A DNA stretch of 64,000 bases, from the NCBI GenBank assembly GCA_038880755.1, contig JAVZRC010000004.1, forward strand, positions 6,390-70,389. Direction: 5' to 3'. Positions 219 through 43,378 of this stretch are shown here, one piece after another. The stretch's first letter is position 1; the number at the start of each line of letters is the position of its first letter. The notes under the pieces were generated by a model. That model ran no database searches and was not told the DNA's origin. It saw only the letters and a list, made by a program, of their open reading frames with translations. This DNA is from Candidatus Micrarchaeia archaeon (GTDB lineage: Archaea > Micrarchaeota > Micrarchaeia > CABMEP01). The translations under genes were made by a program, and so were the position numbers.

Positions 219-3200
219 CTACATGAACTCTGCAAGATTGAACTGCTTGCTTGTTTCATCTTCGAATATAGATTGTATGTCTCTTTCAAGAAGCTGGATC
301 CTTTGCCTTAGATAATTTGGAAGATTATACTCATCTATCAAATTCTTAGTTATCTTAAGATACTTTTCTATTCCACCCCTATTCACAGTCAATAGAAGCT
401 TACCTCCGCATTTTGTACATTTTCCTGATAATGGAACTCTTCTATATTTCATATTGCAATCCACACATCTAACTTGCTGTGTGCTAAAGGAACGCAGATT
501 GCCATAGAGATCTGGAAGAAAGTGGCTCATTATAAGACGCTCGGCAGCATCTCTTGCATCTACTGCAGCAATTTTCTTTGCCAAACCTAATTGTGCACTT
601 ATTTTGTCTTTCATTGATTTAAGATACACGTATTGAGTTGTAAGTGCACCGTTATTCATATCTGGAGTATAATGAGTGAACCATAAATTATACGTTTCAT
701 TCTCCTTTCCTAATCTATCTGAAACGATCTCGATCTTGCATTCAGAAGGATGTGCAAATCTCCAGCTTGCTTCATAAAATGAAGATGGAAATCCTTGTAC
801 TACTTCCAATGCATGTACCTGGTCGTCAACCTCTGAAGGATCAATATGGGTCATCATAACAATTGGTGCATCCATCTGTCCTCCTCTTGTTACTGGAAGG
901 TAATGCTTTGAAAAGTTTAGCAATCCATCCATAAGAAGCATTATTGCATTCTCATCTCCATCACAATTGTGAGATAAAAGCATTCCCTTTCCACAGGCAA
1001 ATATCTTATCCTTATCTGATTCCAACTGAATGTCATAAACATATGGTTCAGGCAGGCATGACGAATCAAGATATTCCAATGATTTTATTTCCAAAACTCT
1101 GATGTCTTTTTCTGATTTGATGTATCTTCTAACTGTATTTAGTACCTTGTCTGTCTCTTTATCTTTTTTGATTAATTTCTCTATCACTTTCAATTTTCTG
1201 CCTTTTTCACCGATCAGATTAATTTTAGAGGCAATCTTTTTAGAATCGATTGAATATAAGCATACATAGTGCAGAGTAGTTTTTGGTGGCTCTCTTCCTA
1301 ATTTCTGATATCTATCTATTAAGAACTTGCTTGTGGTTGGTCTATCTTTTTCAATCTTTAATGTTGGTGACATTCCTAATCTAGTCAGTAGGAAATACAT
1401 TTTGGAGGCAAGCTTTTCTGACACAGTACAATACTTTACTTCACAATCATATACATTACCATCACCTTGATAGCATCCTCCCAAGAAAGCATAAATCTTT
1501 TCTTCCGGAAGATTAAATATCCAATCTGGAATGTCTTTAGTGTATGCATTATTTCCAAATTTGAGCTTTTCAGTAAAGAGTTTGTAGTATATTTTGCTTG
1601 TAATATAAACTCCTTTTTCATCTTCATATACAGGAACTTTTAGTGAGTGAATTATACAATTCTTAATATCCTGTCTAATTATTGGATCTGAAGCAGCTAT
1701 ACCTATATGATAGGATTCTTTGCCCTTTTTACTCGAACGCCATGCCCATCCTTCCGATATGTAATATCCAAATAATCTAAGCAATTTGTCTGTAATTTTT
1801 ATTTTTAAAGGAACTTTACCAAAGTTTCTCTTGAAACCTAACCAAAAATTATTTTCGCCTTCTTGTTTCAATTTCACATAAGAATACAATGGAATACTGT
1901 AAGGGGCCCTATAAAAGCTATTAATTATCTGTCTCTTCGACATATTAAGGTAGTCTCCTAGAGTTTTTAGATTTTTACCAAATCGCTTAATAACTTCTTT
2001 AGCAAATGATTTATTTGTTCTAACTGTCATTTTCACTGATTCTTTATCTTCCAAAAAAAACTCAAGTAGATCTAATTCATCTAATTGATTGACTTTATTT
2101 GGTTCATTGATTAGCGGGTTTTCTAAATTAACTTTATTCAATGAAGCAAGTAAATCATTTTCTGATAACTCTCTTACTCGTTTCTCTTTAAGTTGCTTGG
2201 TTTTGGGATCAAATACCCAAACTCTATGGTCTGGAGTAGCAATTATCTCCTGATTGTTCTGTGCAATAATCTTTACCAACTGCCCGGAATAAGGCTTTCT
2301 CATTATGAATTTTATTTTCTTTTCTTCCGCATTGCCATTTATGTCTGTACCTAATGCAAATACATTTTGATCTGTAAGATCAATCAACTCCCATTTTCCA
2401 TCAATTATCTTTGGTAAGTCTGGCCTCTTGGAATATCTAATAAACATTTCTGAGATGGTTGATGCATGCAGTTCTTCATCATTTTTATAGTACATCATTG
2501 TATTTCCTTGGAGGCAGTCACGACGACTTGCTGCAAATAAATATGGATGCGCATAACATACGTGTGCTTTTGTTGTTCCTATTATTCTGCTAGCAATGCC
2601 ACAAGAAGTATGCGGAGAAAGCTCTATAACCAAATGACCTATTATGTCTCTGTCTTCCTTCAAATTATAATACGGAGGAAGGCCGTAGATCTTGACCAGT
2701 TCATCATCTACAAATCTTGCAACCCTTGCCATGTATTTAAGGCATCTCTCTGATACTATCATATCATGCGGAAGAAGTTCCACGAGTTGATCCTCACTCT
2801 TTAGTTCATTTCCATATGCATCTTTGAGATAACCTAACTCTCTGAGCTTTGAAACTGGGGTTCCTATTTCGCGTGGATAAAAGTGAGTAACTGGAACATT
2901 TGTTGCATCAAATCTACATGTTCCATCTTTGAAAACAGAAACATCATGGACTGCTCTTAATATTCCTTTTTCTAAAGGCTCTGGAATCTTCAATTCGCTT
3001 ACCAATCCGTTCACGCATTTTACTTCTTCTGGAAGTACTTTTGTTTTAGCTGCTGCATCTTCCACAATCTCAACTATATTTATTGGTCTTGAATCATAGA
3101 AAACTGTCTTGGATTTTATCTCTTTTCCTGGCTTTGTCTGCACTGTAGAGCATATGTGAAATTCTGTTGCTGATGGTTTGCCGCATTTGCTGCATATTCT

Positions 3201-5252
3201 CTCTGGCTTTGTCTGCTTTCCGCATCTTTGGCATTTTCTTGAGAACGACAAACCGCCACAGAATGGACAGCGCATTCTTGCTATTTCTACTGTGACATCA
3301 TATTTTAGCTTCCTTGCTTTTGCATCTTTATATGCCTTAATTATGTTGCGAGTCTTGCCGCCTGCATTTCCAATTGGAAATAGAGAATGAACAGCAGGTT
3401 TCATATGTCGCTCTCTTGATTTTTCAGGCCTTCCCATTCTGCTCCCTATCCACGTACCTGCCTTGTCCCTAATTTTTATTCCAGAAAGAATTGAAACTAG
3501 ATCAACAGACCTTCCTTTTTCTTCGTCTGATTGTAATTTCAAACAATAATCATCTACCTTTTTCATAAGAGAATTTACCAACGATTTATCTGGTTTTTGT
3601 CCTGGCTGCAAACCTAAAGAAATGAATATTGATTTTGCATTTTCTCCTTCTATTATTATCTGATCTCTTTCTACCCTATGAGGAACTAGAAGTTTTTCAA
3701 GGATACTTTTTGCAGGGTCATATACTACTCTAAGCTCTTTTGGATTCAGAGGATTTAATAAGTCTGATTTCCATTCACCTGAAGAAAGCCAGTGTATCAA
3801 TTCCTTAACTTCATCATTCGATATGTTAGACCAGAAGAACGTAAATTTTGGATGCAAAGGAATGCCTGTCTCCTTTGAGATCTTTAGTGCAGTATCAAAA
3901 TCAACCTTATATGGATCTATATTAGAATAAATATTCTTCAGTTCTTGTTTCAATTCGATTGCATCTCTCAATTCCTCAAGCCACCATTCCTCATTATATC
4001 CTGCCGGGAGCAGAGGTGAATTTGATTTAAGGAAATCGCCGTATGAAACAAGAATGTCTCCAATGAAAAGAACTGTATGTACATTGTCCTTTATCTTTTC
4101 TGCATGCTCTCTGGATTCCACCCTAACAACTGAACCATCCTTAAGTCTAACAACTGGTGGTTCGATCGTCTCGCAAGGAGTGAGAACACATCCTTTTCCA
4201 GGTCTTTCAAGCTTGAATTGAGTTCCTATCGCTGGAAATGAATCAAGTATTATCATTGTAGCAGGATGTATTCCCTTCGCCATAAACCCGCTAAGCCTTG
4301 TTCTTCCGTATCTTAACCTGAATCCTCCGAATCTAGATGGATATGCAATTACTGGCCTACCTGCTACAACCTCTTCTATGTATTTTGGATTTGGCTCAAT
4401 CTTTGTAACTTTTGCTTCCTTTGCTTTTGGTGCTTTTATAACTGATTCAAGCCAGCTCCAATCAATTCCAAGCTTCTTTGCCTGGCCAAGAACCTTTGCT
4501 GCCTTCTGTGCAATTCCTTCACAAAGGACAAGGGCCATTCCTCCCCTTATCCTATTCGTCTCTATCCCCGGCACATTTCTATATGCACCCACTTCAAACT
4601 CTTCTGTTGGATCTCCTGTTACACATACAGGACAATTTCTCACTATGTGCCTAAACTCATCATCTGAAGGCTTGTATTGCAATCTTGCTGCCCTTGCATC
4701 ATAAAGTTCCATCTCCTCAAGATATCGTTCAACAGCGGTGTCTGTAGGTCTCCATTCTGCAAGGCCAATCTTTCTTCTAAGAAAATCTGCCAAGAGAACG
4801 CTAAGCGCTGCTGCGGTTCCCCCTGCAGATCTTATTGGACCTGAATAATAAACAGCAAGATACTCTGTGCCATCCTGATTCTGATGAATTTTAACACTTG
4901 AAATACCTTCAGTAGGAGCAACCAGAACTCCTTCTGTAAGAACTGCTGTCCCTGTTCTTAATGCCTGCTCTATAAGCTTCTCTTTCCCACCGAAATCTCC
5001 GAACTTTCCTTCTATGACTGCCTCAGCTGCCATAAATGCAATCTGTGTTCTTGATTTGTCATGCGGCAATGAACGTATGTATTCTGCGATTCCTTTTGGC
5101 CCTACAATTCCCTCCACTCTGGCTGCAAGATCTGGAGCAGGCACTATTTCAACTGAATCTGAAGGATCTATGCCTTTCTTCCTTGCCTCTGTTGCAATCT
5201 CATATATCTTTGAAATTTGCGACTTCATGTATTCGTCTGCAGAGTTAATCAT
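219..5252 (-). CDS. polC: DNA polymerase II (PolD) large subunit DP2, interrupted by an intein
   Basis: N-terminus EYMKSQISKIYEIATEARKKGIDPSDSVEIVPAPDLAARVEGIVGPKG matches archaeal DP2. Zn-finger clusters CPFCGG..CQRCG and CSKCGK are present, as is the RRD/CDGDEN catalytic motif. The ORF track starts at 5309, but the ATG at 5252 lies 4 nt after the DP1 stop and matches DP2 N-termini. Confidence 0.95.
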   Translation of the reverse strand: MINSADEYMKSQISKIYEIATEARKKGIDPSDSVEIVPAPDLAARVEGIVGPKGIAEYIRSLPHDKSRTQIAFMAAEAVIEGKFGDFGGKEKLIEQALRTGTAVLTEGVLVAPTEGISSVKIHQNQDGTEYLAVYYSGPIRSAGGTAAALSVLLADFLRRKIGLAEWRPTDTAVERYLEEMELYDARAARLQYKPSDDEFRHIVRNCPVCVTGDPTEEFEVGAYRNVPGIETNRIRGGMALVLCEGIAQKAAKVLGQAKKLGIDWSWLESVIKAPKAKEAKVTKIEPNPKYIEEVVAGRPVIAYPSRFGGFRLRYGRTRLSGFMAKGIHPATMIILDSFPAIGTQFKLERPGKGCVLTPCETIEPPVVRLKDGSVVRVESREHAEKIKDNVHTVLFIGDILVSYGDFLKSNSPLLPAGYNEEWWLEELRDAIELKQELKNIYSNIDPYKVDFDTALKISKETGIPLHPKFTFFWSNISNDEVKELIHWLSSGEWKSDLLNPLNPKELRVVYDPAKSILEKLLVPHRVERDQIIIEGENAKSIFISLGLQPGQKPDKSLVNSLMKKVDDYCLKLQSDEEKGRSVDLVSILSGIKIRDKAGTWIGSRMGRPEKSRERHMKPAVHSLFPIGNAGGKTRNIIKAYKDAKARKLKYDVTVEIARMRCPFCGGLSFSRKCQRCGKQTKPERICSKCGKPSATEFHICSTVQTKPGKEIKSKTVFYDSRPINIVEIVEDAAAKTKVLPEEVKCVNGLVSELKIPEPLEKGILRAVHDVSVFKDGTCRFDATNVPVTHFYPREIGTPVSKLRELGYLKDAYGNELKSEDQLVELLPHDMIVSERCLKYMARVARFVDDELVKIYGLPPYYNLKEDRDIIGHLVIELSPHTSCGIASRIIGTTKAHVCYAHPYLFAASRRDCLQGNTMMYYKNDEELHASTISEMFIRYSKRPDLPKIIDGKWELIDLTDQNVFALGTDINGNAEEKKIKFIMRKPYSGQLVKIIAQNNQEIIATPDHRVWVFDPKTKQLKEKRVRELSENDLLASLNKVNLENPLINEPNKVNQLDELDLLEFFLEDKESVKMTVRTNKSFAKEVIKRFGKNLKTLGDYLNMSKRQIINSFYRAPYSIPLYSYVKLKQEGENNFWLGFKRNFGKVPLKIKITDKLLRLFGYYISEGWAWRSSKKGKESYHIGIAASDPIIRQDIKNCIIHSLKVPVYEDEKGVYITSKIYYKLFTEKLKFGNNAYTKDIPDWIFNLPEEKIYAFLGGCYQGDGNVYDCEVKYCTVSEKLASKMYFLLTRLGMSPTLKIEKDRPTTSKFLIDRYQKLGREPPKTTLHYVCLYSIDSKKIASKINLIGEKGRKLKVIEKLIKKDKETDKVLNTVRRYIKSEKDIRVLEIKSLEYLDSSCLPEPYVYDIQLESDKDKIFACGKGMLLSHNCDGDENAIMLLMDGLLNFSKHYLPVTRGGQMDAPIVMMTHIDPSEVDDQVHALEVVQGFPSSFYEASWRFAHPSECKIEIVSDRLGKENETYNLWFTHYTPDMNNGALTTQYVYLKSMKDKISAQLGLAKKIAAVDARDAAERLIMSHFLPDLYGNLRSFSTQQVRCVDCNMKYRRVPLSGKCTKCGGKLLLTVNRGGIEKYLKITKNLIDEYNLPNYLRQRIQLLERDIQSIFEDETSKQFNLAEFM
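966..2516 (-). mobile_element. Intein (517 aa) with LAGLIDADG homing endonuclease in PolD DP2
   Basis: The extein motif AASRRD|CLQGNT...LLSHN|CDGDEN is split by the insert. The insert starts with Cys, has block B ATPDHRVWV, LAGLIDADG blocks LFGYYISEGWA and FLGGCYQGDGNV, and ends HN with a +1 Cys. It is in frame: aa 932-1448 of the ORF. Confidence 0.9.
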
Positions 5253-6934: not shown

Positions 6935-8275
6935 ATGGCTCAGCTGGCAATAGAACCAATAAAACAAGATATTTATTTAGAACAAGCAAAGAAAGTATTT
7001 GAATCAGCAAACATAAAAGCAAATGAAAATGAAATTAGAAAGATACAGGAATTTCTGAAAAAAAGTGAAAGATGGGTTTCATTGCAAATAAACCTAACAA
7101 AAATTTTATTGAATACTAAGGATAAAGAACTGCTTTTGAAGATTATTGACACTATTGACAAATTAGAGACCGATTCAAAAATTAAAGCACAGCTATTGAG
7201 TGGAATCGCAAATCTTTCTGATGATAAAATTAAAAGTGAGATTAATGCAGCTGTTCATTACATCCAAACTGAAGAGATGGAAAAAATAATTCCTAATTAT
7301 GAAAGCATATGCGGATTGGATGAAATTGTTTTTAGAATAGGAAGGCTTGGGATAAGAAAGAATAGGAGGGAAATGAAAGAGATAATGAAGATTTTTAATG
7401 AGAAAGAAACTGTGGATGCGGTAAAGAAACTAACTGAAAAATATAAAGATGCTGAACAGAAAGCAATTGCTGCAGGAGAAGTCATTCACTTGATATCCAA
7501 TTCAGAAATTAAGGATTTCATAGAATTAAGAAATAATATCATCGAAATAATACCTTTGGTAAAAGAAGAATACAATATAACACATTTCGGAAGGCATTCC
7601 TCAGGATTCATTTTGCAGCTATATAACTATGCAAAAAGCACTATGGGCAGTGAAACTGAAAAAGAGGGAAGTGAAAATAGTAAAAAGGAAAAGAAAAAGG
7701 AGAGAATTTTTATATTCGCTTATTCTTATTCTGACCACAACGGTGCATTCTACGGCGACTCAAAGCATAATGATGCATTAAGCAAATATGGAAAGACCAT
7801 CGCAGTAGAGGCAAGTAGTGATGTTGAACTCATGCTAATGATTGAAAAGATGTACAAGAAACATGGCTCTTTCAATGGGATTTTTATCGCAGGACATGGA
7901 GAGCCAACAAGAGTAAAATTAGGAAAGGAAGATAAGCCTTACTCTCTTTTTGATGTCAGCGACTATGACATTATGTCTAAGATAGGAAGCATGATTGATA
8001 AAGAAGATAAAAACAGCTTTATTGCGCTCATCTCCTGTTCAACTGGAAATGAGCAAAGCACAAGATCTCTGGCAAATATAATGGCATCTGCAGCAAGTGT
8101 ACCTTATGTTTATGCACCAGAAGACAGTTTTACAAAGTATAGCCTAAATATTGAAGAAGAAAATAAAGGAAAAAAGAAAAAAACAGGCAAAAAAATAACG
8201 GAAGAAAGAATAACAGTAGCTTATTATCGTGAAAAAGGAACAGTACAGACAATGGAATTTGGAATCAAAAAATAG
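6935..8275 (+). CDS. Hypothetical protein with a C-terminal caspase/CHAT-like His-Cys dyad domain
   Basis: The N-terminal half is helical. The C-terminal part has GIFIAGHGEP, then about 47 aa, then SFIALISCSTGN. This is the strand-HG / strand-C pattern of clan CD peptidases. Confidence 0.45.
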   Translation: MAQLAIEPIKQDIYLEQAKKVFESANIKANENEIRKIQEFLKKSERWVSLQINLTKILLNTKDKELLLKIIDTIDKLETDSKIKAQLLSGIANLSDDKIKSEINAAVHYIQTEEMEKIIPNYESICGLDEIVFRIGRLGIRKNRREMKEIMKIFNEKETVDAVKKLTEKYKDAEQKAIAAGEVIHLISNSEIKDFIELRNNIIEIIPLVKEEYNITHFGRHSSGFILQLYNYAKSTMGSETEKEGSENSKKEKKKERIFIFAYSYSDHNGAFYGDSKHNDALSKYGKTIAVEASSDVELMLMIEKMYKKHGSFNGIFIAGHGEPTRVKLGKEDKPYSLFDVSDYDIMSKIGSMIDKEDKNSFIALISCSTGNEQSTRSLANIMASAASVPYVYAPEDSFTKYSLNIEEENKGKKKKTGKKITEERITVAYYREKGTVQTMEFGIKK

Positions 8276-8648: not shown

Positions 8649-8797
8649 CGGGCCCAGAGGGATTCGAACCCTCGACCTTCAGCTTGCTTCGAAACTTTTC
8701 CTTTGAGAAAGTTTCATCAAAAACCCTCTGATGAAACTCTTTTCTTAAAAGAGTTTCTTAGAAGGCTGCCGCTCTATCCAGGCTGAGCTATGGGCCC
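8649..8797 (-). tRNA. tRNA-Arg(UCU) with a 74-nt intron at the canonical 37/38 position
   Basis: Minus-strand parts: GGGCCCA/UGGGCCC acceptor, GCUC..GAGC D arm, GCAGC-CUUCUAA-GCUGA anticodon arm after intron removal, and GAGGG-UUCGAAU-CCCUC T arm. A BHB can be drawn: 4-bp CUUC/GAAG helix flanked by 3-nt bulges UAA and CAA. No encoded CCA. Confidence 0.85.
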
Positions 8798-10071: not shown

Positions 10072-10092
10072 AATATAAAAATCTTTTGAAAT
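10072..10092. repeat. Left copy of a 21-bp direct repeat AATATAAAAATCTTTTGAAAT (candidate target-site duplication)
   Basis: Identical 21-mer at 14912-14932. Both copies lie just outside the inverted repeats. Confidence 0.7.
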
Positions 10093-10095
10093 ATA

Positions 10096-10297
10096 GGCTT
10101 TGTAGAAATCCTATGATGAGAAAATATGATTTCTTCATCATTAGAATACATAGATTGTAGACAAGTGCTTTCAGCTTAATTTCCTTCTTCTTTACCTCGA
10201 TGAGTCTGCTCTGCAGATCTCCACCAAATTTTCTCTTGATTGCAGAAAAGACAGTTTCAGCCATATTCCTTCTTCCATAAACTGTTTTATCAGGATC
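10096..10297 (-). pseudogene. DDE transposase C-terminal fragment (IS4/IS5-like)
   Basis: Minus-strand frame LDPDKTVYGRRNMAETVFSAIKRKFGGDLQSRLIEVKKKEIKLKALVYNL matches the conserved C-terminal Y..R..vE..Fs.iKr.fG...r block of DDE transposases. There is no upstream catalytic region. The frame reads into the terminal repeat. Confidence 0.6.
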
Positions 10298-10352
10298 TAA
10301 TTAAAAAGATTTTAAAAGAGTAGACGTGTATATAATTTTAGGAGGGGGTTTT

Positions 10353-10628
10353 ATGGTAGATGTCAATACCAAAAGTATTGAGGAAGCTATTACATCAAAT
10401 GTCAGGGACGCGCTGAACGGCGACAAAGAGGCATGTAAGAGATTGAATCTTCTGATTCAACTTCCTTTTTCTTCTATAAGAAAGCTATTTCATACTACTG
10501 AAGAATCAAAACATGCACTTGACCTGATCGCAGGAGTCAAGGCGACACAGAAAAATCCTGATAGAGATGCTGTGAGATATTGTGAAACTAACTTACCTGA
10601 GGTGTTGGGTAGGAAGATAAAGGTGTAA
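10353..10628 (+). CDS. Hypothetical small protein (91 aa), first gene of the cargo
   Basis: Strong SD AGGAGGGGG lies 5 nt upstream of the ATG at 10353. The stop is 2 nt before the next start. No family recognised. Confidence 0.55.
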   Translation: MVDVNTKSIEEAITSNVRDALNGDKEACKRLNLLIQLPFSSIRKLFHTTEESKHALDLIAGVKATQKNPDRDAVRYCETNLPEVLGRKIKV

Positions 10629-10630
10629 TT

Positions 10631-13600
10631 ATGCCAGAAGAAAAGAAGCCAAAAAGGTCAATAAAAGAGATTGTTAATGAGGCTAAGAAACAACACAAGC
10701 TACCAGAGTTGGTTGAATCTCTGAGAACAGATATTGAAAAGGCGAAGATGAGCAAGGAGGAGATCAAAGAAATTTACAGAGAGATTCCAAAGGACAGGCT
10801 GGAGAAGTACAAAGCGACAGCGAAGGAGATCGGCATCGAGCCGACAGCAGAGAATATCGTCGCACTTTACATTCAGGAGAAGTCGACGGAACAGATCAGT
10901 GCGATGCAGGCTATCCTCGCAAATGCAGAGACGTTAAGATCATTTCAGGAAGCACTCTCCACTGCAAAATCAATAATAGGTAGCGATGACCGCGCAATCG
11001 CCCTCAGCGAAATAGCCAAGGCACAGGCATCCTCAGGCATGACAAAGGAAGCAACTGCAACATTCCAAGAAGCAATCTCCACTGCAAAATCAATAGAAGA
11101 CAGCAATGACCGCGCAAAAGCCCTCATAGAGATAGCCAAGGCACAGGCATCCTCAGGCATGACAAAGGAAGCAACTGCAACATTCCAAGAAGCAATCTCC
11201 ACTGCAAAGTCAATAGAAGACAGCGATGAGCGCGCAAAAGCCCTCATAGAGATAGCCAAGGCACAGGCATCCTCAGGCATGACAAAGGAAGCAACTGCAA
11301 CATTCCAAGAAGCAATCTCCACTGCAAAATCAATAGAAGACAGCAATGACCGCGCAAAAGCCCTCAGAGAAATAGCCAAGGCACAGGCATCCTCAGGCAT
11401 GACAAAGGAAGCCCTCTCCACTGCAAAATCAATAGAAAATGATTATGACCGCGCAGCAGCCCTAAGAGAAATAGCTAAAGCACAAGCACAAGCAGGTATG
11501 ATAAAAGAAGCATCATCCACATTCCAAGAAGCAATCTCAACTGCAAAATCAATAGAAGATGATTATAACCGCGCATCCGTCCTCACAGGAATAGCCAAGG
11601 CACAAGCACAATCCGGTATGACAAAGGACGCATCATCCACATTCCAAGAAGCACTCTCCACTGCAAAATCAATAGAAGATGATTATTACCGCGCATCCGT
11701 CCTCACAGGAATAGCCAAGGCACAAGCACAATTCGGCATGTTCCAAGAAGCCATCTCCACTGCAAAATCAATAGAATATAGCGATTTCCGCGCAGAAGCC
11801 CTCGGAGAGATAGCCAAGGCACAAGCACAATTCGGCATGTTCCAAGAAGCACTCTCCACTGCAAAATCAATAGAAAATGGTTATTTCCGCGCATACGCCC
11901 TCAGTGCAATAGCTAAAGCCCAAGTACAAGCTGGCATGTTACAAGAAGCACTCTCCACTGCAAAATCAATAGAAAATGGTTATTTCCGCGCATACGCCCT
12001 CAGTGCAATAGCCATAGCACAAGCATCCTCAGGTATGATAAAGGAAGCATCATCCACATTCCAAGAAGCAATCTCTGCTGCAAAATCAATAATAGGTAGC
12101 GATGACCGCGCAATCGCCCTCAGCGAAATAGCCAAGGCACAGGCATCCTCAGGCATGATAAATGAAGCCCTCTCCACCGCAAAGTCAATAGAAAACAGCG
12201 ATGACCGCGCAGTAGCTCTAAGAGAGATAGCCAAGGCACAGGCATCCTCAGGCATGACAAAGGAAGCAACTGCAACATTCCAAGAAGCAATCTCAACTGC
12301 AAAATCAATAGAAGATGATTATAACCGCGCATACGCCCTCAGAGAGATAGCCAAGGCACAAACATCCTCAGCAAAATTAATCCAACCAGTCCAATACGAT
12401 ACGTTCATCTCCATGTTGCCATCGGCAGATACAACCCTGATCGGGGCGATAGGGATGCAACTCCCGCTGTCGGAAATGGACAAGGTTTTATCCTCGCTCA
12501 AGGATCCTGTCAAGAGAAAAAGGGCAGAGATGCTCATGACAGAGGCGAGGACAAGCCTTTACCATATCTACAATATATCTGAAGAGGAGAAGGAGCTGCT
12601 CTTCAACAAATACAGGGAAGAGTTTAGAAGCTACCTCTCAAAAGCCGAGGAGCACAAGCACTATGAGCTGAAACTGATCTCAAGGATACTCTTCAATCTT
12701 GATGTCTCCACCGGCGAGCACACCTCATTCGCACTGCTCTTCGATGCGGCAAAGAAGCTTCCGGCCGGATCAGACGCTATCAACAGAATACTCTACACCC
12801 TTGCAGAGATGGACAGCTATAAAGGCAAGGATCTTGTGATGCAGATGATATCGAAAGGCAGTCTGGATCCAAGAGTAGAGTGGCTGCTCCTCCACAAGCT
12901 ATCGGAGACAAAATACCTGGATCCGACGCTGCCACAGTTCTACGAGAAAGAGATCAAAGGCACTTCGGGCAAAGAGAATACAAGCAAGAAAGCGGAAATT
13001 TTGGAGACGATAAGAAAGCTCAAATCCGAAGTCGGAATCAATCCAGACTCCAGCATACTAGACTTCCTGCTCAACAAAAAGATAAAAGACAGGGAAGGGA
13101 AGGAAGCTGTGACAGTGGACGAGAAGATCGCCCTCGCCAAGGAATATAAGTCAGAATTCGATAGAATAAAAGACAAGGATGCGCTTGTCTCCTCCCTCTC
13201 CAAGGACAGGACAAAGGCGATATTCTACTTCATACTCTACGGAGGAAGGACAAGGTTCTCCCTGGTCAACAATTACGACAGCTCCAAGTTCATGAAGGCA
13301 CTGGAGGTTGCGTCTAATCTGGAAATCCATAACGGTCCATTGGATGAGTTCGTATCCATGATGAAGGACAAGAATGTGAGGGAGAGGCTTCTTGCCGGCA
13401 CCTTCCCTGTCACCGGAGAGAAATACTCCAAGGAGATCAGGGTGGACGTTTCCAATTCAGAAGAGCTGTCATCTATAGAAAAATTCGCATCAGAGATATT
13501 CGGAAAGAACCAGATGGGCGCCATACTTAAGGTGAAACACTACATGAACCGGCTGAGGGAGATGGGAGACAATGACCTCGCAGATAGGATAAGCAAGGCA

Positions 13601-14620
13601 GGCGGACTGGCAGACCTTCCACAGCTCCTCTCAGAAGCAGAGTCCAGGCATCCAGAGCTGGTTGTGGAAGTAGAGAAGAAGCATTCCGTCCTGTGGAGCA
13701 AGATGGCAGAGAAGAAGATTTTCTCAATGTCCCTCTATGCTGCATTGACAAACGATGCGAATAAGATCAGTATCAAAGAGCTGATCAAGAATATTGAAAT
13801 CCAGAGGAAGGCGCTGGAGTTCGCTGTCAGGCAGCAGTACAAGGCGGGAGCCATAGAAAAGATGGTCCGCGACGAGAGACTTGAGGCGCTGCAGGAGAAG
13901 AGCAAGGCGAAGTTGCTCGCCTACCTGCTGAGCGAAACGATAAGATCAGACACAGAGATAGAGAACAGGCTTCTTTCGGAATGGCAGGCTCATCTAGACC
14001 AGGTATTCCAATCATACGACAGGCTGGGTGCGGCCGAAACTGAAAGAGTAAAGGAAAGGACAGTGGTCCTGAGATACCTGGACAAGAGAGAAGACCTGAT
14101 AGAGTGCCTGAGGTTCGCGGACTCAGCACAGTGCTGCTTCAACAGCAAGAACTACAGGATAGAAGGTCACAATGTAGGGGCGCTGGAGTGGATAGCAAGG
14201 ATATGGAAGGATCCGCTTTCGTTCGTATTCCAGATTGAGGCGCCAGAAGCAGAAGGAACAAGAAATGCGATAGGCTTTGTTTTCGGCAGCTTCGGCATCT
14301 TTGAAGGCAAGCCTGCTGTCCTGCTGAACGGAGTTTACATGGAAGGGAGGACAAAGACGGCTGCGCATAGCATCCTTGCTACAATAGAGAATGATTTTAG
14401 CCGTCCTCTGGGCGCAGTAGCACAGTTCGTTGCCTCGAGGCATGGCGGTTCGGTGGATATGCCGAAGGAGTATTCGAACAAACAGGTGACGGTCAGGAGG
14501 CTGCGTGCGATAAAGGGTAGCGATGGAAGGCCGGAGACTGAAGTGTACGATGATATGAATGTAGGGGCGAACAATGAGTCCACAACAGATGGCAACTTCT
14601 GGCACAAAGAAATATCCTAA
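10631..14620 (+). CDS. Giant hypothetical protein (1329 aa): 13 TPR-like alpha-helical repeats plus an uncharacterised C-terminal region
   Basis: Long ORF with an AAGGTG SD. Repeats follow the form FQEAISTAKSIEDSNDRAKALIEIAKAQASSGMTKEATAT. The C-terminal region carries CLRFADSAQCCFNS and NGVYMEG motifs of unknown family. Confidence 0.8.
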   Translation: MPEEKKPKRSIKEIVNEAKKQHKLPELVESLRTDIEKAKMSKEEIKEIYREIPKDRLEKYKATAKEIGIEPTAENIVALYIQEKSTEQISAMQAILANAETLRSFQEALSTAKSIIGSDDRAIALSEIAKAQASSGMTKEATATFQEAISTAKSIEDSNDRAKALIEIAKAQASSGMTKEATATFQEAISTAKSIEDSDERAKALIEIAKAQASSGMTKEATATFQEAISTAKSIEDSNDRAKALREIAKAQASSGMTKEALSTAKSIENDYDRAAALREIAKAQAQAGMIKEASSTFQEAISTAKSIEDDYNRASVLTGIAKAQAQSGMTKDASSTFQEALSTAKSIEDDYYRASVLTGIAKAQAQFGMFQEAISTAKSIEYSDFRAEALGEIAKAQAQFGMFQEALSTAKSIENGYFRAYALSAIAKAQVQAGMLQEALSTAKSIENGYFRAYALSAIAIAQASSGMIKEASSTFQEAISAAKSIIGSDDRAIALSEIAKAQASSGMINEALSTAKSIENSDDRAVALREIAKAQASSGMTKEATATFQEAISTAKSIEDDYNRAYALREIAKAQTSSAKLIQPVQYDTFISMLPSADTTLIGAIGMQLPLSEMDKVLSSLKDPVKRKRAEMLMTEARTSLYHIYNISEEEKELLFNKYREEFRSYLSKAEEHKHYELKLISRILFNLDVSTGEHTSFALLFDAAKKLPAGSDAINRILYTLAEMDSYKGKDLVMQMISKGSLDPRVEWLLLHKLSETKYLDPTLPQFYEKEIKGTSGKENTSKKAEILETIRKLKSEVGINPDSSILDFLLNKKIKDREGKEAVTVDEKIALAKEYKSEFDRIKDKDALVSSLSKDRTKAIFYFILYGGRTRFSLVNNYDSSKFMKALEVASNLEIHNGPLDEFVSMMKDKNVRERLLAGTFPVTGEKYSKEIRVDVSNSEELSSIEKFASEIFGKNQMGAILKVKHYMNRLREMGDNDLADRISKAGGLADLPQLLSEAESRHPELVVEVEKKHSVLWSKMAEKKIFSMSLYAALTNDANKISIKELIKNIEIQRKALEFAVRQQYKAGAIEKMVRDERLEALQEKSKAKLLAYLLSETIRSDTEIENRLLSEWQAHLDQVFQSYDRLGAAETERVKERTVVLRYLDKREDLIECLRFADSAQCCFNSKNYRIEGHNVGALEWIARIWKDPLSFVFQIEAPEAEGTRNAIGFVFGSFGIFEGKPAVLLNGVYMEGRTKTAAHSILATIENDFSRPLGAVAQFVASRHGGSVDMPKEYSNKQVTVRRLRAIKGSDGRPETEVYDDMNVGANNESTTDGNFWHKEIS
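10944..12370 (+). repeat. In-frame tandem repeat array (13 units of 99-120 bp) inside the giant gene
   Basis: 120-bp periodicity with near identity: lines 11041, 11161 and 11281 are identical apart from a single A/G difference in the 11161 copy. 99-bp units occur around 11860-12000. A ~75-bp exact copy of 10960-11040 recurs at 12083-12160. Confidence 0.9.
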
Positions 14621-14655
14621 TTTATGATGTATGATGTGATATAATTTCTATTTTT

Positions 14656-14841
14656 TTAGCTTTTATATCCCAGTTTATCTTCGAGTAAAATTATTTTCAG
14701 AACTACATCACTAGGAATTGATGTTGAGTAAATGTTTCTTAGAGAATTTAGAGGAGTTTTAGAATTTGAGATTCCTTTCTGTTTTACTAACTGGAAGCCT
14801 AATATGATAAGCTTTTTAAGTTTATTCTGCCTCTTAGACAT
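14656..14841 (-). pseudogene. Possible N-terminal remnant of the IS transposase
   Basis: 61-aa ORF (MSKRQNKLKKLIILGFQLVKQKG...) starting ~50 nt inside the right terminal repeat, on the same strand as the C-terminal fragment. The assignment rests on position only. Confidence 0.3.
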
Positions 14842-14911
14842 CGTATACCTCTTGGCATGGTCGCCAAGAGTTTATACTCATAATAATTTAAGAGGATTTC
14901 TACAGAGCCGA

Positions 14912-14932
14912 AATATAAAAATCTTTTGAAAT
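14912..14932. repeat. Right copy of the 21-bp direct repeat AATATAAAAATCTTTTGAAAT
   Basis: Identical to 10072-10092. Confidence 0.7.
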
Positions 14933-14971: not shown

Positions 14972-15562
14972 CTATATTTTCCATGAATAAATTTTAGATA
15001 TAATTCTATCCAATTCCATCACGCTTTCCTTTAGCTTTCCTTTTCTATTTATAATAATGTAATAAGGTTTTCCGGTTGCTGCAGAATAAACGTTTATCAT
15101 CGAAAGAGAAACCTCACGAAGAGCATTGATGTCATTGGCAGTGAAAGTTGGGCGTTTTCTGCTAACATCTAATTCCCTTCTTTCAAGAATCTCATTGGTT
15201 GGAGCGTCTATAAAAATAAACGCATCGATAGGCACTGAAGAAAGAAGTTCGTATGACAATCCAGGCATATAGCCCGAGGGCTTTTTTAGAGCAGCATGGG
15301 TGTCAAGAAAAAGTATACGTCCAATTTTTGATTCTTTTTTTTCTATAGAATTTATTTCAGATATTGCTAAATTCTGAATTTTTTTATGCTGTGATTCTGG
15401 CAGATTGTTGATTTCGTCTCTATTTGTTACATTAAATTCATTTTTTGCAAACCTTAAAACAATGTCTCCATAATTTAGTACTGAAATTTTTTTATTTTTC
15501 TTTATTAGCTCCCTGAGAATTGTAGACTTCCCGACTCCAGGAAGTCCCATTATAACAATCAT
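14972..15562 (-). CDS. adkA: Adenylate kinase, archaeal type
   Basis: MIVIMGLPGVGKST P-loop at the N-terminus. 196 aa. Located downstream of secY as in most archaea. Confidence 0.85.
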   Translation of the reverse strand: MIVIMGLPGVGKSTILRELIKKNKKISVLNYGDIVLRFAKNEFNVTNRDEINNLPESQHKKIQNLAISEINSIEKKESKIGRILFLDTHAALKKPSGYMPGLSYELLSSVPIDAFIFIDAPTNEILERRELDVSRKRPTFTANDINALREVSLSMINVYSAATGKPYYIIINRKGKLKESVMELDRIISKIYSWKI

Positions 15563-43303: not shown

Positions 43304-43378
43304 GATTAAAACAATCAGATGAAATATATAAATATTTCTATCTCTATTCGGCAACTAACGAAAAAATGAAAATATGAA

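Follow-up and report, generated by a model that had tools for sequence, protein, structure and literature searches.

A probable non-autonomous IS5-family element with foreign cargo between adk and the DUF106 gene of a Candidatus Micrarchaeia archaeon

The stretch of DNA analysed here (the window: 64,000 nt, positions 6,390-70,389 of contig JAVZRC010000004.1, assembly GCA_038880755.1; all coordinates given without a locus label refer to it) comes from a Candidatus Micrarchaeia archaeon, and the relatives of its SecY protein belong to Candidatus Micrarchaeia (DPANN) metagenome-assembled genomes (MAGs) from Tengchong hot springs. An element of 4814 bp (10096-14909) separates adk from the DUF106 gene; in it, the two ends of an insertion sequence (IS) enclose two genes that have no part in transposition. 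Sequence comparison indicates that it is a non-autonomous derivative of an IS5-family IS of ~981 bp that is native to hot-spring Micrarchaeia, and it is quite probable that the whole is a cargo-carrying derivative organised like a mobile insertion cassette (MIC). An earlier note, made from the letters of this stretch alone, had proposed an IS skeleton enclosing a horizontally acquired cassette. That proposal is borne out by recovery of the parent IS, by the foreign composition of the interior, and by empty sites in three relatives (loci L005, L007 and L008).

An IS5-family skeleton around foreign DNA

The complete parent IS was found with a 20-mer from the skeleton. It occupies positions 3097-4077 (981 bp) of locus L157, in a sister Micrarchaeia genome (a 93%-identical relative), has the same terminal inverted repeats (TIRs) as the element in the window, and is bounded by an 8-bp target site duplication (TSD), CCTAAAGA. 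Its transposase open reading frame (ORF; 3165-4079, 305 aa) scores 173 bits on the NCBIfam model transpos_IS5_2 (NF033579; cut-off 140) and 72 bits on Pfam DDE_Tnp_1 (PF01609; cut-off 23). A match to a DDE model, TIRs at both ends and a TSD of constant length, 8 bp, are thus found in the element and its parent, as in the IS5 family. The parts of the element and its immediate borders are as follows.

10075-10092: host DNA, the first of two copies of an intergenic 18-bp unit duplicated in tandem, ATAAAAATCTTTTGAAAT (in tandem in L005, single in L007 and L008)
10088-10095: left TSD copy, 8 bp, GAAATATA, abutting the TIR and identical to 14910-14917
10096-10112, minus strand: GGCTTTGTAGAAATCCT, the TIR on the transposase-stop (3') side of the IS; L157 has the same sequence as its 3' TIR
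10096-10301, minus strand: 3' IS remnant, 206 bp, transposase codons ~237-305 (LDPDKTVYGRRNMAETVFSAIKRKFGG...), 199/206 identical to L157 3872-4077
10302-10352, plus strand: AT-rich spacer before the cargo, G+C 0.275 (from composition and sequence reading)
10353-10628, plus strand: cargo ORF 1, 91 aa, called as a gene in the MAG records
10631-14620, plus strand: cargo ORF 2, 1329 aa (from Pfam, DNA repeats, homologues, AlphaFold2 (AF2), Foldseek and G+C at third codon positions (GC3))
14621-14705, plus strand: AT-rich spacer after the cargo stop codon, G+C 0.224 (from sequence reading and composition)
14706-14909, minus strand: 5' IS remnant, 204 bp, with TIR, hairpin, ATG at 14841 and transposase codons 1-~45, 91.7% identical to L157 3097-3296
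14893-14909, minus strand: GGCTCTGTAGAAATCCT, the TIR on the 5' side of the IS (plus strand: AGGATTTCTACAGAGCC); L157 has the same sequence as its 5' TIR
14910-14917: right TSD copy, 8 bp, GAAATATA (from sequence comparison)
14915-14932: host DNA, the other copy of this 18-bp unit (from comparison with L005)

The two TIRs match at 16 of 17 positions as an inverted repeat, and their spacing is as the earlier note described it, with ATA between the left copy of a 21-bp direct repeat and GGCTTTGTAGAAATCCT, and GA between AGGATTTCTACAGAGCC and the right copy. Read inward from the right end, 14909->14706 aligns with nucleotides 1-200 of the L157 IS, with a cluster of indels (+5/-1) that breaks the transposase reading frame, while 10301->10096 aligns with nucleotides 776-981 (96.6% identity). 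The middle of the IS (nucleotides ~201-775, ~575 bp, residues ~45-236) is gone and 4404 bp stand in its place, as anticipated from the apparent lack of a catalytic core. The lost stretch includes IAVDSSG and VIADKAYDS, which we read as the two catalytic Asp motifs; the 3' remnant retains the catalytic E region and neither D. With codons ~45-236 absent and the 5' remnant frameshifted, the element contains no intact transposase.

Both terminal fragments had been picked out beforehand, and both assignments stand. At the left end, the minus-strand peptide ...YGRRNMAETVFSAIKRKFGG...LVYNL, taken for the C-terminus of a DDE transposase, is present and matches the last 46 positions of transpos_IS5_2 (242-287/289, E 1.5e-11) and the end of Pfam DDE_Tnp_1 as well. 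At the right end, a short ORF of 61 aa (14841-14659, minus strand) in the place of the transposase N-terminus proves to be the frameshifted codons 1-45 of the same transposase, because 14909->14706 aligns to nucleotides 1-200 of the L157 IS. By itself this ORF retrieved nothing in tblastn against 119 TIR-bearing loci; its N-terminal identity came from a large protein search with a chimeric query joining the N- and C-terminal fragments. Just ahead of the transposase start, the 5' leader of the IS contains a hairpin with a perfect 8-bp stem (14849-14870; CTCTTGGCGACCATGCCAAGAG (CTCTTGGCATGGTCGCCAAGAG)). L155, L156 and L157 share this conserved hairpin, and it may have a role in controlling expression of the transposase.

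Searches of the 64-kb window with the skeleton ends (tblastn and blastn) found no other IS copy or TIR. Related copies do occur in other genomes. A MAG that also bears the element, GCA_038883295.1, has a second IS 5' end (P0017/L155), which begins MSKRQNKLKKLIILGFQLVKQRGIS... (MSKRQNKLKKLIILGFQLVKQRGISRYSSKFSKKTFTQHQFLVM...), and sister MAGs have further copies (L154 and L156), the 5' end of L156 being 98.4% identical. In the closest relative, L158 is a ~320-bp deletion derivative of the same IS, resembling a miniature inverted-repeat transposable element (MITE), with a deletion that differs from the one in the window. More widely, the 17-mer GGCTYTGTAGAAATCCT has more than 119 genome matches, mostly in methanogens and DPANN archaea, and among the matches listed it bounds MITEs (120-350 bp) and ISs (~1.0-1.2 kb). 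The earlier note would have given up its reading had the repeats been common dispersed sequences; the 17-mer is dispersed, but as the terminus of IS and MITE elements, and so its abundance supports the IS reading. The TIR sequence had no occurrence in a relevant context in the literature searched. One related unit deserves separate mention: positions 2891-4133 of L076, in the Methanobacteriota MAG MV2.Eury.2014, are bounded by TIRs of this type, of which the right one is degenerate, and by a perfect 8-bp TSD, TTTACGTA; they enclose a TnpB/Cas12f-like ORF (Pfam PF07282 TNB domain) in place of an IS5 transposase, possibly a further case of cargo exchange in this IS group.

The DNA between the remnants differs sharply in composition from the rest of the window. 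The G+C content of 10302-14705 is 0.466, against a mean of 0.332 (standard deviation 0.023, maximum 0.393) in 252 other intervals of 4.4 kb, and in tetranucleotide usage it lies at a distance of 0.045 from the remainder of the window, where the other intervals reach at most 0.026. The predicted compositional shift is therefore found on computation, by both measures beyond all other intervals, and the G+C counts given earlier are correct (34/60 at 13561-13620 and 19/60 at 15361-15420). The claim that both plus-strand genes are much higher in G+C holds for the large gene, the C-terminal part of which has a GC3 of 0.627 against 0.27-0.36 in adk, secY, the DUF106 gene and cmk, but not for the 91-aa ORF, where a value of 0.395 is only a mild rise. 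By its composition, the cargo is foreign to this genome. It is flanked by AT-rich spacers of its own. The one at 10302-10352 contains a B recognition element (BRE)/TATA-like sequence, AAAAGATTTTAAAAG, and then a Shine-Dalgarno-like run, GGAGGGGG, ahead of the ATG, and would be the promoter of the cargo. The one at 14621-14705 contains a run of seven T residues (~14653-14659), terminator-like for archaea, that would end transcription.

Direct repeat, target site and flanking genes

The element had first been recognised in part by identical 21-bp direct repeats, AATATAAAAATCTTTTGAAAT, at 10072-10092 and 14912-14932. These are exact and are the sole two copies in the window (where 0.13 occurrences with up to three mismatches would be expected by chance), and the 21-mer is no dispersed repeat. 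It is not, however, the scar of the insertion, as the TSD is the 8-bp sequence GAAATATA that abuts both TIRs. The same rule applies to other elements with this TIR, 11 of which have an exact 8-bp TSD and one a 9-bp TSD; in L157 the 8-bp TSD directly abuts GGCT.../...AGCC, and in L054 the TSD is GAAATATA itself.

Comparison with empty sites accounts for the additional length. The three relatives compared (flank identity ~98% for L005, the closest, and ~90-93% for L007 and L008) have no insert here: their DUF106/EMC3-like gene comes directly after adk, with cmk next. The element therefore does separate adk from the DUF106 and cmk genes, as had been claimed, and relatives that share the cargo genes at this position in native composition, which would have spoken against acquisition, were not encountered. 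An empty site with a single 21-mer had been expected. L007 and L008 do have one copy of the unit, but L005 has it twice, its site reading AATATAAAAATCTTTTGAAAT followed directly by ATAAAAATATTTTGAAAT, an 18-bp unit in tandem. When an insertion at GAAATATA across the junction of the two L005 18-mers is modelled with an 8-bp duplication, both junctions of the window are reproduced, except for one C/A difference. The tandem duplication must predate the insertion, because the single-copy site contains no GAAATATA. The 21-bp repeat is thus best read as the 8-bp TSD plus 13 nt from an older 18-bp tandem duplication, and it serves as a caution for the reading of sequences, in that what looks like a long direct repeat around an IS can consist of a short TSD overlying a local duplication of earlier date.

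Could the 21-bp (or 18-bp) repeat nevertheless be the scar itself, either an unusually long TSD or an attachment (att) site, with the tandem in L005 as an excision footprint? The 21-mer is exact and unique to the two places, and L007 and L008 have a single copy at the empty site, which speaks for such a model. The ends of the element would then be ATA-GGCT... and ...AGCC-GA, whereas L157 and 11 other elements have 8-bp TSDs abutting GGCT.../...AGCC, and GAAATATA is duplicated exactly at both TIRs. In addition, an insertion with an 8-bp TSD into an L005-type sequence gives both junctions, while the footprint model needs an extra loss of 3 nt. An integrase-type island is no better supported: Pfam and NCBIfam searches detected no integrase or recombinase domain in the element, and there is no tRNA at the junction, the nearest (8649-8797) being 1.3 kb away. 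Since the TSD and the tandem duplication together explain the direct repeat, an att site is not needed. We rejected this reading of the 21-mer on the 8-bp TSD rule and the L005 tandem repeat, and regard it as very improbable.

An artefact of assembly or binning, in which a fragment of higher G+C from another organism was joined at IS repeats, has even less to commend it. MAG contigs do often break at this IS (L154, L155 and L156), and in a third MAG, GCA_038872155.1, contig L003 stops inside the cargo, in its C-terminal region. However, a 9.1-kb stretch that includes the element and its junctions is 100% identical in two MAGs besides the window, GCA_038873695.1 (L001) and GCA_038883295.1 (L002/L004); these were assembled independently, and a chimera is disfavoured for that reason. 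Moreover, both junctions lie inside the IS remnants and not at the ends of the repeats, and the TSD is perfect. On these three grounds an artefact was rejected, and its probability is close to negligible.

The target site has a second feature. Ahead of the DUF106 gene, 10087->10072 on the minus strand reads AAAAGATTTTTATATT, a BRE/TATA-like motif. Beyond the transposase-stop end of the IS come the 8-bp TSD and then RAAAKRTTTWTATAT at three independent loci: the window, the L157/L158 locus (orthologous in the two) and L154. This motif is found at these positions.

10087->10072 and 14927->14912, minus strand: copies of RAAAKRTTTWTATAT flanking the element
Window 43338->43324 (minus strand), L157 4086-4100, L154 ~136-150 and the flank of L158: copies of RAAAKRTTTWTATAT elsewhere

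In its strict form the motif has only three occurrences in the 64-kb window. Two of them flank the element; the third, at 43338 on the minus strand, is ~25 nt upstream of the ATG of a gene. In L157 and L154 an ORF starts ~25-35 nt past the TATA part. The motif looks like a BRE/TATA promoter because ORF or ATG starts follow it at ~25-35 nt. Within this small sample of three independent loci, the IS seems to land just upstream of a BRE/TATA motif, in one orientation, such that the promoter is left attached to its gene. L022 and a few other DPANN copies fit the pattern more loosely, and it is absent in methanogen MITEs and ISs with the same TIR and in bacterial relatives. The transposase could find such sites by reading the sequence or by way of a bound complex of TATA-binding protein and transcription factor B (TBP/TFB). 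The L157 locus shows one more trace of this kind: an older 3' remnant of the same IS (3050-3096) is 1 nt from the insertion site of the complete copy, so that remnant and full copy together mean repeated insertions at one promoter-proximal target.

Among the groups that ISfinder places in the IS5 family, the IS resembles the IS903 and ISH1 groups in having a DDE_Tnp_1 transposase of ~300 aa. The inverted repeat of IS903 begins GGCTTTGT..., and the termini of the IS described here begin likewise. A TSD of 8-9 bp is long for IS5-family elements; IS903 makes TSDs of 9 bp and this IS makes 8 bp. The target preference of IS903 extends into the flanks.

Several other features of the region were recorded. 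The adk/DUF106-gene spacer of L005 contains a second tandem duplication (~12080-12200; CATGACATAATATAAA twice) that is absent from the window, and this spacer appears to be repeat-prone in L005. The sequence at 8649-8797 (minus strand, between the UPF0147 gene and cmk) is a tRNA of 149 nt (Rfam, 51 bits), presumably with an intron; ARAGORN overlooked it. A 446-aa Lys/Glu-rich ORF (6935-8275, plus strand) runs opposite to its neighbours; it has no match in Pfam or NCBIfam, and its 3' end is conserved in relatives, in a comparison that began at window position 8000. Further left, at ~631-5252 on the minus strand (a position inferred from the L004 gene calls), is the large subunit DP2 of DNA polymerase D (1677 aa), for which precomputed Pfam matches indicate an intein with a LAGLIDADG endonuclease.

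The cargo genes and their family

No family or homologue was detected for the 91-aa product of ORF 1 in the Pfam, NCBIfam, protein, defence or phage libraries, and the first ~100 aa of ORF 2 likewise have no detectable relatives. Beyond that point ORF 2 contains an array of tetratricopeptide repeats (TPRs; 10931-12385), coded by DNA repeats of 99/120 nt. The assignment is secure, with Pfam TPR_12 matching in seven stretches (E 2e-27, 95.6 bits, cut-off 30.1) and TPR_30 scoring 56.5 bits. An all-alpha region follows (~12386-14060), modelled by AF2 at a mean predicted local distance difference test (pLDDT) of 72, for which Foldseek gave only generic alpha-solenoid fold matches, none of them significant. 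The last ~180 aa (~14066-14617) are the most conserved part of the family. Here the AF2 model, built from six sequences, is of low confidence (pLDDT 62.7); the top 50 Foldseek matches of this model in the PDB were all GCN5-related N-acetyltransferases (GNATs; best E 3e-4, template modelling (TM) score to target ~0.5). No Pfam or NCBIfam GNAT model matched the C-terminus, and no canonical R/Q-x-x-G-x-G/A motif was found by eye. A GNAT-like fold is therefore a tentative suggestion of the model.

The family of large proteins to which ORF 2 belongs is defined by its C-terminal region (window 12386-14620; loci L135-L152). At E <= 1e-3, 298 of 1.84 billion representative sequences belong to it, and it has no Pfam model. 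Nine distant members carry no Pfam domain besides TPR, and a search of PDB sequences with the family profile found nothing. The closest relatives are 69% (L153), 52%, 49% and 46% identical in amino acid sequence, and are genes of local composition on contigs with a G+C of 0.40-0.53; cargo homologues in native composition include L153, L131, L132, L134 and L135 (Micrarchaeota). The contigs of L153 and L131 carry archaeal marker genes, and L132 was judged from its context to be archaeal as well. Among named genomes, the family occurs in one other Micrarchaeota, in ~12 members of the candidate phyla radiation (CPR/Patescibacteria), and in a few small contigs that are listed under other or unclassified bacteria. 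It is thus found mainly in the ultra-small episymbiotic radiations, the DPANN archaea and the CPR bacteria. The source of the cargo was most likely an archaeon of higher G+C, probably from another DPANN lineage; the donor is unsampled. An origin from a phage or a defence system was considered and finds no support, as no cargo relative was detected on viral contigs, PADLOC gave generic TPR matches only, and PHROGs nothing meaningful.

Assembly of the cassette and its place among known elements

How did foreign genes come to lie within an IS? In the reading that we prefer, a DDE transposase would have made an 8-bp staggered cut at GAAATATA. The target would have been the junction of the pre-existing 18-bp tandem duplication in the adk/DUF106-gene spacer, 8 bp upstream of the BRE/TATA-like motif, and the 8-bp TSD, overlapping the older duplication, would produce the apparent 21-bp direct repeat. 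The IS interior (residues ~45-236) would have been replaced by 4.4 kb of foreign DNA with its own promoter-like and terminator-like spacers. Presumably, the transposase acted in trans from an intact copy. That the cassette moved as a loaded unit, and was not loaded in place, is favoured by us to a slight degree only.

Several observations count against this reading. The cassette occupies one locus only, both in the protein collection and in metagenome scans: the 24-mer spanning a junction had no match, the skeleton 20-mer had one chance match (L159), and no second cassette copy appeared. Movement of the loaded cassette is accordingly not observed, because only one locus carries it. The same genome yielded no transposase gene that is complete and intact: in the IS copy of the same MAG, the ORF runs for at least 99 codons up to the end of the contig, and the outer TIR appears damaged or degenerate, the only complete copy seen being that of L157. 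The best homologue of the cargo is 69% identical and comes from a genome of 40% G+C, below the 47-49% of the cargo itself. Finally, the GNAT-like assignment is based on the low-confidence model described above.

The single locus would follow directly if loading had taken place on site. In that sequence of events, a complete IS inserted with its 8-bp TSD and its interior was later replaced by foreign DNA through illegitimate recombination, so that the cassette never transposed loaded and is a dead IS with an insert. A recent intact insertion is plausible, given the 98.4%-identical IS 5' end in the sister genome (L156), and the final structure would be indistinguishable. However, three events (an exact deletion of the IS interior, a gain of 4.4 kb, and the +5/-1 indel cluster in the 5' remnant) would all have to strike a single site in the time since L005 branched off, which corresponds to ~2% divergence. 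Furthermore, internal-deletion derivatives of the IS exist as separate units (L158 and many MITEs), and a second TIR-bounded unit with an 8-bp TSD (L076) holds a non-IS5 gene. Loading in place is a real contender, which we rate at about one chance in three.

A composite transposon might also have been the starting point, with the cargo once situated between two directly oriented full IS copies, the inner parts of which decayed or were deleted. The remnants are oriented as this origin predicts, they have diverged unequally from L157 (identity of 91.7% at the 5' end and 96.6% at the 3' end), and L157 itself shows adjacent landing, with remnant and full copy 1 nt apart. But only two TIRs are present, there is no inner TIR or further IS sequence within 10302-14705 or elsewhere in the window, and two independent deletions would be required. 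We consider this route unlikely; in any case it would be a variant path leading to the same end product, and would not make the element one of another kind.

MICs are defined by IS ends that enclose passenger genes with no functional transposase, the cognate transposase being presumed to act in trans (PMC3129680, PMC6199540). Examples are MIC231 of Bacillus cereus (Chen et al. 1999, as cited in PMC6199540) and the Tn3-type MICs of Xanthomonas (PMC4337579). The element in the window is like them in structure, with IS-type TIRs and a TSD around passenger genes unrelated to transposition and no functional transposase, while the presence at more than one locus that would mark mobility was not seen in the protein collection or the metagenome scans. 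It differs from known MICs in its host, a DPANN archaeon, and in its skeleton, which is of the IS5 family and not IS4/IS231 or Tn3. Both ends of the transposase gene are still readable here, one copy is known, and mobilisation in trans is inferred. Transporter ISs (tISs) also have passenger genes between IS ends but keep their own transposase (PMC3129680), whereas the present element has lost residues ~45-236, including both catalytic Asp residues. With the MITEs of the same group, bounded by GGCTYTGTAGAAATCCT in methanogens and DPANN archaea, it shares TIRs, an 8-bp TSD and an internal deletion of the transposase; those MITEs are 120-350 bp long and have no cargo, in contrast to an element of 4.8 kb with two genes.

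The kind of element is thus already known, and what is new is its occurrence in this archaeal group, the Micrarchaeia (DPANN). The cassette provides a worked example of a genome-reduced DPANN archaeon gaining a large foreign gene inside the shell of a resident IS, with the insertion splitting one of the most conserved gene strings of archaea and breaking no gene. A large recent study of horizontal transfer in Micrarchaeota has no occurrence of 'transposase', 'insertion sequence' or 'mobile genetic' (PMC12892359).

To IS specialists the cassette itself is unsurprising, and the by-products of the analysis may outweigh it. Two of these are worth following: the apparent preference for promoter-adjacent targets, and the cargo family without a Pfam model that is common to DPANN archaea and CPR bacteria. 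A joint reading, in which the IS targets promoter-adjacent sites and the cargo is a mobile host-interaction gene, is speculative, and we would give it about one chance in four. If it were true, promoter-adjacent insertion would offer the IS a safe haven in a compact archaeal genome, in loose analogy to Ty3 and Tf1 in yeasts, and the cassette would carry a host-interaction factor from one symbiont lineage to another.

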